From Escherichia coli (lineage in GTDB: Bacteria > Pseudomonadota > Gammaproteobacteria > Enterobacterales > Enterobacteriaceae): a stretch of DNA of 64,000 bases. Below, piece by piece: positions 15,995 to 18,972 of the stretch. The position numbers were made by a program, and so were the translations under genes. Numbering within the stretch: the first letter of the stretch is position 1; each line of letters begins with the position of its first letter. The notes below the pieces were generated by a model. The model was not told the DNA's origin. It saw only the letters and a list, made by a program, of their open reading frames with translations, and did no database searches. The stretch lies in assembly GCF_016903815.1 (NCBI RefSeq), contig NZ_CP069973.1; one strand, 5' to 3'.

Positions 15995-16085
15995 GCGACT
16001 CCTCCGGCAAAACGGAAGTTTATCACTTGTGCGTTATAACGGACAAATGCTACGGTACCTGTACGTTATAACGCACGAGGTGACT

Positions 16086-17258
16086 ATGCGTCTGTTTTCT
16101 ATTCCTCCACCCACGCTACTGGCGGGGTTTCTGGCGGTATTAATTGGCTACGCCAGTTCAGCGGCAATAATCTGGCAAGCAGCGATTGTCGCCGGAGCCA
16201 CCACTGCACAAATCTCTGGCTGGATGACGGCGCTGGGGCTGGCAATGGGCGTCAGTACGCTGACTCTGACATTATGGTATCGCGTACCTGTTCTCACCGC
16301 ATGGTCAACGCCTGGCGCGGCTTTGTTGGTCACCGGATTACAGGGACTAACACTTAACGAAGCCATCGGCGTTTTTATTGTCACCAACGCGTTAATAGTC
16401 CTCTGCGGCATAACGGGACTCTTTGCTCGTCTGATGCGCATTATTCCGCACTCGCTTGCGGCGGCAATGCTTGCCGGGATTTTATTACGCTTTGGTTTAC
16501 AGGCGTTTGCCAGTCTGGATGATCAATTTACGTTGTGTGGCAGTATGTTGCTGGTATGGCTGGCAACCAAGGCCGTTGCGCCGCGCTATGCGGTAATTGC
16601 CGCGATGATTATTGGGATCGTCATCGTTATCGCGCAAGGTGACGTTGTCACAAATGATGTTGTCTTTAAACCCGTTCTCCCCACTTATATTACCCCTGAT
16701 TTTGCGTTTGCTCACAGCCTGAGCGTTGCACTCCCCCTTTTTCTGGTGACGATGGCATCGCAAAACGCACCGGGTATCGCAGCAATGAAAGCCGCCGGAT
16801 ATTCAGCTCCTGTTTCGCCATTAATTGTATTTACTGGATTGCTGGCACTGGTTTTTTCCCCTTTCGGCGTTTATTCCGTCGGTATTGCGGCAATCACCGC
16901 GGCTATTTGTCAAAGCCCGGAAGCGCATCCGGATAAAGATCAACGTTGGCTGGCAGCTGCCGTTGCAGGCATTTTTTATTTGCTCGCAGGTCTTTTTGGT
17001 AGTGCTATTACCGGGATGATGGCTGCCCTGCCCGTAAGTTGGATCCAGATGCTGGCAGGTCTGGCGCTGTTGAGTACCATTGGCGGCAGTTTGTATCAGG
17101 CGCTGCATAATGAGCGTGAGCGCGACGCGGCGGTGGTGGCATTTCTGGTAACGGCAAGTGGATTGACGCTGGTCGGGATTGGTTCTGCGTTTTGGGGATT
17201 AATTGCCGGAGGCGTTTGTTACGTGGTGTTGAATTTAATCGCTGACAGAAACCGATAA
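16086..17258 (+). CDS. ydcO: BenE-family benzoate-type membrane transporter YdcO
   Basis: Polytopic membrane protein; start set at MRLFSIPPPTLLAG (ORF-track upstream extension rejected). Confidence 0.85.
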   Translation: MRLFSIPPPTLLAGFLAVLIGYASSAAIIWQAAIVAGATTAQISGWMTALGLAMGVSTLTLTLWYRVPVLTAWSTPGAALLVTGLQGLTLNEAIGVFIVTNALIVLCGITGLFARLMRIIPHSLAAAMLAGILLRFGLQAFASLDDQFTLCGSMLLVWLATKAVAPRYAVIAAMIIGIVIVIAQGDVVTNDVVFKPVLPTYITPDFAFAHSLSVALPLFLVTMASQNAPGIAAMKAAGYSAPVSPLIVFTGLLALVFSPFGVYSVGIAAITAAICQSPEAHPDKDQRWLAAAVAGIFYLLAGLFGSAITGMMAALPVSWIQMLAGLALLSTIGGSLYQALHNERERDAAVVAFLVTASGLTLVGIGSAFWGLIAGGVCYVVLNLIADRNR

Positions 17259-17265
17259 TAAATAT

Positions 17266-17290
17266 CCTCCGGCATAGCCGGAGGTTTTTC
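17266..17290 (+). terminator. Rho-independent terminator of ydcO (cctccggcatagccggagg + TTTTT)
   Basis: Perfect 8-bp stem, 4-nt loop, T-run, 8 nt after ydcO stop. Confidence 0.6.
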
Positions 17291-17962
17291 AAATGCGCCT
17301 ATAAGGCTCTCTTACCAGCCGCGCCCTAACAGGCGCACACGATCTGACATTTGCATCCAACTTCGTTACTTACGGCCCGTAAACGGGCTGCCCGGATAGG
17401 GAATCGATAACTGCTCTCCCATTTTATCCTCTTCAAGCTGGTGCTTTATGTAATCCTGTATCTTCGCCGTGTTCTTACCCACCGTATCGACGTAGTACCC
17501 TCTGCACCAGAACTCCCTGTTCCTGTATTTGAATTTCAAATCACCAAACTGCTCGTAAAGCATCAGACTGCTTTTCCCTTTCAGATATCCCATAAAGCCG
17601 GATACGCTCATTTTGGGCGGGATCTCCACAAGCATATGGATATGATCTGCACAGCATTCAGCTTCCAGAATCCGTACACTTTTCCACTCACACAGCTTTC
17701 TCAAAATACTGCCTATTGCTCTACGCTTCTCTCTGTAGAACACCTGTCTTCGGTATTTTGGCGCAAAAACTATGTGATATTTACAGTTCCATCGGGTGTG
17801 CGCTAAGCTCTTTTCGTTCCCCATTGGGACCCCCTTTTGATTTCTTGTTTGACACTTGCAGTTGCCAGACCGCAAGGTGTTTTAACAAATCAAAAGGGGT
17901 TTTAATAACTGGCTTAAAGCTGAAAGCTTTCCGGAACCCCCAGCCTAGCTGGGGGTTTTCTG
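17291..17962 (-). mobile_element. IS200-type insertion sequence (IS200/IS605 family, tnpA only); boundaries approximate
   Basis: Y1/HUH TnpA ORF flanked by about 75 and 135 bp non-coding arms; perfect 10-bp stem hairpin aacccccagc/gctgggggtt at 17935-17957, like the IS200 left-end structure. Confidence 0.7.
17366..17824 (-). CDS. tnpA: IS200 transposase TnpA (Y1 HUH single-strand transposase)
   Basis: 152 aa MGNEKSLAHTRWNCKYHIVFAPKYRR...; HUH motif (HIHML) and catalytic Tyr region; ORF-track 169 aa form has upstream extension. Confidence 0.88.
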   Translation of the reverse strand: MGNEKSLAHTRWNCKYHIVFAPKYRRQVFYREKRRAIGSILRKLCEWKSVRILEAECCADHIHMLVEIPPKMSVSGFMGYLKGKSSLMLYEQFGDLKFKYRNREFWCRGYYVDTVGKNTAKIQDYIKHQLEEDKMGEQLSIPYPGSPFTGRK

Positions 17963-17966
17963 TGCA

Positions 17967-17994
17967 CAAAAAAGCGCCATCTAACGATGGCGCG
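17967..17994 (-). terminator. Rho-independent terminator of ydcL (gcgccatcgttagatggcgc + TTTTTT on minus strand)
   Basis: Perfect 8-bp stem with T6 run immediately downstream of ydcL stop. Confidence 0.65.
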
Positions 17995-18001
17995 TCTGGA
18001 A

Positions 18002-18670
18002 CTACTTTTTGTTAACGTCAAACATGGTGGCATCGGTCGCCATGTCATCAATAACTTGTTTAATATTTTCGAAAGCCATTGGCGTACTTTCGTTATTCAG
18101 GTCTTTACCTTCGCCCTGACGAACGACTTTGATAACCGGTTTATTAGTCGCTGCATCAATCAGCTCACCTTCAAAATAGAGGCGAGTATCCATGGTACGG
18201 TGGCCTGTAGCCATTTGCGTCCCCGCAACCACTAATGCAACAGGAACCACTTCATAGAATTGCAGCCCTTCTTTGCTGGTATCTACACCGGTAATGGCCC
18301 CACGGAAAATCAGACTATGCGGCCCAGCGGTGGTAACCAGTGGTTTACGCTGCGCTATCGCTTCTTTCATTTCGGTGTTGGTATAGTTCAAAATTTTATC
18401 CAGAACTTTCTGCCCTACCTGGGTAGAAGGTTTCGGTACCGGATAATAAGTGATTGGGTTCCAGACGATGCTGTCATATTTGCTTTGATCAAAACTTGGG
18501 TCTACCCAACGTAAAACAGGTTTACCTGTTGCCGAGGTTGTTTCTTTTAAATCAGAGTAATTGTTTAAAAAACCAGAATATTTATCTGGCTGGGTGATTT
18601 TAGAGGCACAACCAGACAGAGCCAACAAGCCGCATAAAGCTGCAACTTTCGCAAATGATGTGGTACGCAT
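18002..18670 (-). CDS. ydcL: Lipoprotein YdcL (DUF3313)
   Basis: 222 aa with lipobox LALSGC; synteny. Confidence 0.9.
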   Translation of the reverse strand: MRTTSFAKVAALCGLLALSGCASKITQPDKYSGFLNNYSDLKETTSATGKPVLRWVDPSFDQSKYDSIVWNPITYYPVPKPSTQVGQKVLDKILNYTNTEMKEAIAQRKPLVTTAGPHSLIFRGAITGVDTSKEGLQFYEVVPVALVVAGTQMATGHRTMDTRLYFEGELIDAATNKPVIKVVRQGEGKDLNNESTPMAFENIKQVIDDMATDATMFDVNKK

Positions 18671-18972
18671 GAATAGTTTCCTGAGATGATTATATTACTT
18701 TCTAAGTTATAGCAAAAAGCGCCGCTTCGTGTTGTGGCAAAAAAAGTGTTGGTGAAAATAAATTTTTTAGCCCCTTTTCAGACGACATAGTCAATGCCGA
18801 AAAAGGGGCTAAGTCAATCATCAGTAGTTAAATTTCAGTAAGTTAAGCGGCTAAAAAACTTCGACTACTGTGATTAATTTCACATCCCTTCGATAAAAAA
18901 TATGCTTACCGAAAAGAAGAACAGTAAACCATCTCAGCGTGGGGAATTTTCACGCGCTTTGTTCTTACCGGA

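Follow-up and report, generated by a model that had tools for sequence, protein, structure and literature searches.

The 64,000-nt stretch of Escherichia coli DNA analysed here (the window) carries between ydcO and ydcL a complete copy of the insertion sequence IS200C (17257–17967, minus strand, 711 bp, 5'-GTGCACAGAA...GGAGGATATTTATT-3'), which sits at the T-rich tail of the ydcL terminator and within the stop codon of ydcO, one nucleotide away from the point at which K-12 carries the related element IS609. We consider it highly probable that IS200C entered the tail of the ydcL terminator by peel-and-paste transposition, that the terminator was read as a mimic of the element's own right end, and that the target of IS609 overlaps the same tract. 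The gene order of the region is rlhA (ydcP), sutR (ydcN), ydcO, the IS, ydcL, tehB, tehA and ydcK. E. coli strain 7/2 (NZ_CP023820.1) matches the window at 100% identity and the IS is annotated in RefSeq, and the window element is an ordinary, already annotated copy of IS200C.

The only open reading frame with a family match in the 711 bp is tnpA (17366–17824, minus strand; RefSeq WP_000526135.1), tnpB and iscB being absent, and the size of the element fits the IS200 group of about 0.7 kb. The product is a 152-aa Y1/HUH transposase with the HUH motif at H61-I62-H63, Tyr125 and Gln129, and it matched both Pfam Y1_Tnp (E = 3.8e-38, 130.7 bits against a cut-off of 23) and the NCBIfam equivalog transpos_IS200 (E = 1.9e-43, 147.7 bits against a cut-off of 55). 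The catalytic core aligned over its full length to solved IS200-family transposases, with the HUH residues 61–63 and Tyr125 (in YIKHQ) conserved relative to 2ec2 and 2f4f, and the IS608 TnpA structure 2a6m was matched as well (E = 3.9e-19). RefSeq names WP_000526135.1 'IS200/IS605-like element IS200C family transposase', and it is on this RefSeq/PGAP product name that the designation IS200C rests. These lines of evidence all agree with an earlier sequence-only reading of the window, in which a 152-aa Y1/HUH TnpA of the IS200 type had been recognized. The copy is complete and apparently functional and would be active; the 17–35 places per genome counted in clonal carriers suggest past activity of IS200C.

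The limits of the element, 17257 and 17967, follow from the empty-site alleles taken together with 44 right-end and 117 left-end flanks among the matches listed. The plus-strand sequence ACCGATAATAAAAAGCGCC, or GGCGCTTTTTATTATCGG in the ydcL sense, is shared by five empty-site alleles of diverse lineages. At the right end, all 44 complete copies among the matches listed were invariant through the hairpin CCTCCGGCTATGCCGGAGG and the following ATATTTATT and variable beyond, while at the left tip the conserved element starts with G(T/G) and is preceded by variable sequence in the 117 distinct left flanks among the matches listed. The derived ends on the minus strand are accordingly 5'-GTGCACAG...ATATTTATT-3', and a length of 711 bp fits the empty sites exactly, without duplication, at the MgrR terminator, the pgm terminator and the ydcO/ydcL junction of strain VCSW5. 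Two other models of the ends were tried. A 709-bp element (17260–17263 to 17968–17971, ambiguous within an A-run), derived from the empty-site comparison alone, was ruled out by the conservation of all 44 right ends among the matches listed through ATATTTATT and by the fit of the MgrR, pgm and VCSW5 sites to 711 bp; a model with TT in the left end and TATT in the target fits ydcO/ydcL and fails at the MgrR site. The sequence-only reading had placed the element at 17291–17962 and thereby lost 34 bp at the right end including the hairpin and T5, and its arms of about 135 and 75 bp become, by the empty sites and the conserved ends, non-coding arms of 143 bp on the left and 109 bp on the right.

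Terminal inverted repeats are absent, the two end sequences being unrelated, and one hairpin lies near each end. The left-end hairpin, perfect with a 10-bp stem and a 3-nt loop (AACCCCCAGC-TAG-GCTGGGGGTT; 17935–17957, minus strand; DNA fold −11.7 kcal/mol, z −3.6), is the one already noticed in the left arm from the sequence alone, and its counterpart in IS200 is reported to terminate transcription in both directions and to protect tnpA from transcription that enters from outside (Ellis 2015, PMC4513863). The right end consists of an 8-bp hairpin (CCTCCGGCTATGCCGGAGG; 17266–17284; terminator scan, DNA fold −10 kcal/mol), which is not found in empty sites, and a 9-nt tail that ends in TTATT (17257–17261, minus strand), the putative right cleavage site, invariant in 44/44 copies among the matches listed. 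With ATATTTATT following the hairpin on the minus strand and TTTTT on the plus strand, this structure scores as a terminator in both directions. The hairpin and T5 at 17266–17290 are missing from every empty site and invariant in the 44 other copies among the matches listed, and they are the right end of the IS, not host sequence. A-rich stretches, AGAA and GAAAAA, lie 5' of the two IS hairpins and could, by analogy with IS608 (PMC6006769), serve as guides by base-pairing to the T-rich sites of cleavage.

Between the left-end hairpin and the gene lies a second structured region. A 5'UTR stem-loop (IS nt 69–137; 17831–17899, minus strand) is predicted with an RNA folding energy of −40 kcal/mol (z −4.1), and its 3' arm, which stops 6 nt short of the start codon of tnpA, includes AAAAGGGGG, probably the Shine-Dalgarno sequence of tnpA. 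It corresponds to the stem-loop at nt 69–138 of IS200 that is reported to mask the ribosome-binding site (Ellis et al. 2015, PMC4513863). The Rfam family STnc490 (RF01405), an RNA of the IS200 5'UTR region, was matched over its full length at 17834–17957 on the minus strand (146 bits against a gathering score of 56, E = 2.9e-31). A further Rfam match, to TtnuCD11 at 18775–18832, is a chance hit (E = 0.6, 17.8 bits against a gathering score of 70).

Both neighbouring genes remain intact according to their open reading frames and the RefSeq coordinates transferred to the window: ydcO (16047–17258, plus strand), encoding a BenE-family transporter, and ydcL (18002–18670, minus strand), encoding a DUF3313 lipoprotein and oriented as the IS. 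The ydcO stop codon TAA (17256–17258) straddles the IS boundary, with the insertion point at T|AA on the plus strand, and the terminal AATAA of the IS remakes TAA so that YdcO is unchanged. On the other side, ydcL retains its own intrinsic-terminator hairpin (GCGCCATCGTTAGATGGCGC; 17974–17993, minus strand; terminator scan and fold), which is present in all empty and IS609-bearing alleles. The sequence-only reading was thus right that neither gene is disrupted, and wrong in placing the element between two native terminators, since the supposed ydcO terminator is the right-end hairpin of the IS itself and the insertion lies inside the ydcO stop codon. This hairpin with TTTTT begins 8 nt past ydcO, scores as a terminator in the ydcO direction and may have taken on that function. 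Transcription of ydcO would now run into the right-end hairpin and T5 of the IS, and that of ydcL would end at its own terminator. Elsewhere in the species, annotations record a frameshift for ydcO in O157 strain 2009C-4687 and for ydcL in O18ac:H14 strain 873.10.

The insertion would have taken place by single-strand 'peel and paste' transposition without target duplication, on the 3' side of TTATT within the T-rich stretch that ends the ydcL terminator (ancestral GGCGCTTTTTATT^ATCGG). The canonical product is seen in VCSW5 as GGCGCTTTTTATT|IS200C|ATCGG. In the window the left-end flank is T6 (17968–17973, minus strand), a remnant of the ancestral TTTTTATT tail that formed the target tract and 2 nt short of the canonical product. 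Among the carriers TTTTTATT is found in VCSW5 only and T7 in Nord122, which belongs to the window clone; the window and about 90 other genomes have T6. The T6 flank counts against this account of the insertion, in that either a loss of 2 nt or a shifted cleavage must be assumed; later loss of AT or slippage is the likeliest origin, with shifted cleavage as the alternative. In the IS200/IS605 family the active strand lies on the lagging-strand template (PMC5027513). The GC skew of the plus strand was negative in all eight 8-kb bins of the window, so that the minus strand, which holds the IS top strand and the target, is G-rich. The target would thereby have been on the lagging-strand template, and the IS top strand and its target are placed there as the family rule expects.

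Comparison of the ydcO/ydcL junction across E. coli strains, as the sequence-only reading had proposed, identified the empty site. The 5,426 complete E. coli genomes comprised 2,044 with an empty junction, 3,265 with IS609 and 91–92 with IS200C. About 16 of 5,416 genomes matching the locus were neither empty nor occupied by IS609 or IS200C and may hold further insertions or deletions. The IS200C carriers, one O102:H6 strain among them, had 17–35 IS200C places per genome and the E. coli median was 2, a figure that also counts the ydcO/ydcL flanks of the query; about 2.9 copies have been reported (Ellis 2015). These counts suggest that the carriers represent one expanded IS200C clone. The exception is VCSW5 with only 8 IS200C places. 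Its 711-bp IS is identical to that of the window, and identities to other E. coli IS200C copies range from 98.5 to 100%. The flanks of VCSW5 differ from those of the window at 6 of 376 positions on the ydcO side and about 10 of 1115 on the ydcL side, the nearest differences being 29–40 nt from the IS, and its ydcL protein allele is that of K-12 and O157. As the IS copies are identical but their flanks differ, the simplest reading of these alleles is that IS200C was probably inserted twice, independently, at one and the same nucleotide.

The sequence-only reading placed an IS609-type tnpB remnant of K-12 at this junction, and its argument depended on K-12 having an IS-related gene here. K-12 does carry IS609 at the site; it is a full-length element of 1,748 bp with an intact insQ/tnpB and a tnpA pseudogene containing an internal stop, rather than a tnpB remnant only, and it is known as the single, inactive IS609 copy of that strain (PMC5009759, PMC2891674). 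In the ydcL sense its junctions read GGCGCTTTTTAT|IS609|TATCGG and IS200C is found after GGCGCTTTTTATT^, which puts the IS609 point 1 nt upstream of the IS200C point, on the same strand and in the same orientation with the left end towards ydcL. With IS609 inserted at TA|A of the ydcO stop codon, the reading frame continues as ...CGA TAT TGA, and K-12 YdcO therefore has one additional C-terminal Tyr and ends at a TGA inside the IS. The left-end flank of IS609 was TTTAT| at 6/6 sites, of which three interrupt annotated genes and two (ydcL and gltX) lie behind a terminator hairpin, the sixth site, a diverged plasmid copy, being outside the hairpin test. The tail of the ydcL terminator, TTTTTAT^T^, presents both targets in overlapping register, and two members of one family are found at this site because the IS609 target TTTAT^ overlaps the same tract one base upstream. 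The suggestion made from the sequence alone, that the site is a preferred target, is borne out in so far as the two points are 1 nt apart and IS200C is found here in two lineages with differing flanks, and falls short in that IS200C and IS609 arrive there through different target preferences.

A genome scan with the 24-nt left-end hairpin gave at least 120 loci (Yersinia, Vibrio, Brenneria, Edwardsiella, Pluralibacter, Mailhella, Oxalobacter and metagenome-assembled genomes). The flanks were taken from copies with the exact 24-nt left-end pattern, and Y. pestis accounts for 53 of the 117 distinct sites among the matches listed, some of which may share descent. At each of these 117 insertion sites, listed from at least 15 taxa, a GC-rich hairpin and a T-tract come immediately before the insertion. 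In the target logo of the 117 listed sites T occupies flank positions −5 to −1 in 112, 100, 72, 115 and 116 cases, respectively, and TTNTT occurs in 95 (TTTTT 61, TTATT 17, TTGTT 12, TTCTT 5). A simple stem finder was too permissive, scoring 35–47% of control positions as positive, and folding energies and stem-to-site distances were used instead. The last 35 nt before these 117 listed insertions folded with a mean of −17.2 kcal/mol, as against −5.5 at random positions and −4.3 at T-rich-ended controls, and the distance from the last paired G/C to the insertion point was 6–9 nt in 88 of the 117. The 24-nt hairpin, AACCCCCAGCTAGGCTGGGGGTTC, is itself exactly conserved in Enterobacterales, Vibrio, Desulfovibrionaceae, Oxalobacter and metagenome-assembled genomes of Bacillota, Saccharibacteria and Elusimicrobia, which suggests either very extensive horizontal transfer or contaminated assemblies.

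The E. coli copies of IS200C were collected one at a time, apart from the listed scan loci, and four more of them lie behind the plaP, MgrR, pgm and ail/lom terminators. No target-site duplication is seen when occupied alleles are compared with empty ones at MgrR, at pgm and, for VCSW5, at ydcO/ydcL; the plaP/sbcB site is not comparable with K-12, which has tsuA and tsuB there. In strain EC18 (L130), compared with K-12 (L135, 8818–8915), IS200C directly follows the terminator of the small RNA MgrR and truncates mgtT, an annotated gene for a small protein that overlaps this terminator.

The left-end target TTNTT, found in 95/117 flanks, resembles the TTATT of the right end, found in 44/44, both among the matches listed, and in Y. 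pestis tandem copies of IS1541 have the left end of one copy abutting the right end of another. Four Y. pestis loci in NCTC5923 (L069, L070, L072 and L116) read GGAGGATATTTATT|GTGCCC, with one additional T at the joint in L116. From the shared layout we infer that TnpA may accept a terminator hairpin with its T-tract as a mimic of its own right end. Elements of the IS200 group insert almost only a few bases past a GC-rich hairpin and T-tract, a layout that copies that of their own right end. The hairpin is not absolutely required, since gene-internal IS200 insertions such as hisD984 are on record (PMC4513863). More broadly, IS200-group transposases may choose their targets by structure, using terminators that are single-stranded on the lagging-strand template as right-end mimics and inserting 6–9 nt after the stem, a 'terminator-homing' that would extend across many phyla; in this general form we offer the idea tentatively and regard it as rather doubtful. 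If true, it would explain why these elements are nearly neutral, are biased in orientation, occur in tandem and repeatedly hit sites such as ydcO/ydcL.

Part of the observed distribution must come from purifying selection against insertions that disrupt genes, and one could propose that selection is the whole explanation, with insertions into T-rich sequence anywhere and survivors only in harmless places, terminators being safe havens. The ydcO/ydcL junction would suit such a view, as it is a tiny convergent intergenic gap of 34 bp in which neither gene is harmed; terminator-like sequences upstream of ISs have been read as favouring persistence (preprint 10.1101/2025.07.22.666184), and IS609 has no hairpin requirement. 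Selection alone does not predict, however, that the hairpin and T-tract should always be 5' of the left end (117/117 among the matches listed), that the distance to the stem should be fixed (6–9 nt in 88/117 of the same listed sites) or that insertions should fall directly behind the right ends of other copies. IS609 serves as an internal control here, with three of six copies interrupting genes. Many insertions of other ISs disrupt genes in Y. pestis and are tolerated, yet all 53 of its IS1541 sites among the matches listed are terminator-like. Selection as the sole cause is for these reasons improbable.

The proximity of the two elements could also reflect a shared history at the site, with IS200C taking the place of a previous IS609 or being drawn in by it. 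Recombination between related ends would be one possible route, and their common family, common orientation and insertion points 1 nt apart might suggest such a history. We judge this very unlikely, because IS609 sequence is found neither in nor beside the window copy and joining the VCSW5 flanks restores the ancestral empty sequence without any change, and a precise excision of IS609 followed by a separate insertion of IS200C would add steps and explain nothing further. That unrelated insertions hit neighbouring bases by pure chance has in its favour that the observation was made post hoc, over thousands of genomes and many IS sites; against it, three insertions, one of IS609 and probably two of IS200C, lie within 1 nt, and the site fits the independently derived target rules of both elements, which makes coincidence very unlikely. 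Transposition of IS200C into the terminator tail, at a tract that also holds the IS609 target, is hence the reading that we retain.

As a known IS in a known genome, with identical copies in many genomes, the element adds nothing new, and the shared hotspot is a modest curiosity. What has been clarified is the true extent of 711 bp, the right-end hairpin that mimics a host terminator and the stop codon of ydcO, which the insertion interrupts and the IS end remakes, and the locus constitutes a natural three-allele system (empty, IS609 and IS200C) with two relatives 1 nt apart. If the rule of terminator mimicry were general, it would account for the survival of the smallest autonomous IS at little cost to its host and would make insertion sites predictable. 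An explicit target rule linking IS200 or IS1541 to terminators or hairpins was not found in our literature search, and the older IS1541 and ISfinder literature may state it. Terminator-like sequences have been reported as enriched upstream of ISs, most strongly for IS200/IS605, and were interpreted as limiting transposase expression (10.1101/2025.07.22.666184).

Compared with Salmonella IS200 and Yersinia IS1541, the window copy has the same organization in all respects, with tnpA for a 152-aa Y1/HUH transposase as the only gene, a left hairpin at nt 11–33, the 5'UTR stem-loop, STnc490, a right hairpin and neither inverted repeats nor target duplication. No structural difference sets it apart; its derived length is 711 bp, as against the 707 bp quoted for Salmonella IS200 (PMC4513863), and it departs from a canonical insertion product solely in a left-end flank that is 2 nt short. 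IS609 of K-12 (ynck/tnpA pseudogene and insQ/ydcM tnpB) occupies the same junction on the same strand and in the same orientation and likewise inserts 3' of a T-rich motif without duplication, but differs in its divergent tnpA and tnpB genes, its length of 1,748 bp, its target TTTAT^ without a hairpin requirement and its right end TCAA. IS608 and ISDra2 resemble the window IS200C in their HUH and Tyr residues, their subterminal hairpins, a target similar to the right-end terminus and their lagging-strand orientation; they recognize a bare tetra- or pentanucleotide (TTAC and TTGAT, respectively), whereas the target of the IS200 group is a degenerate TTNTT with a hairpin 6–9 nt upstream.
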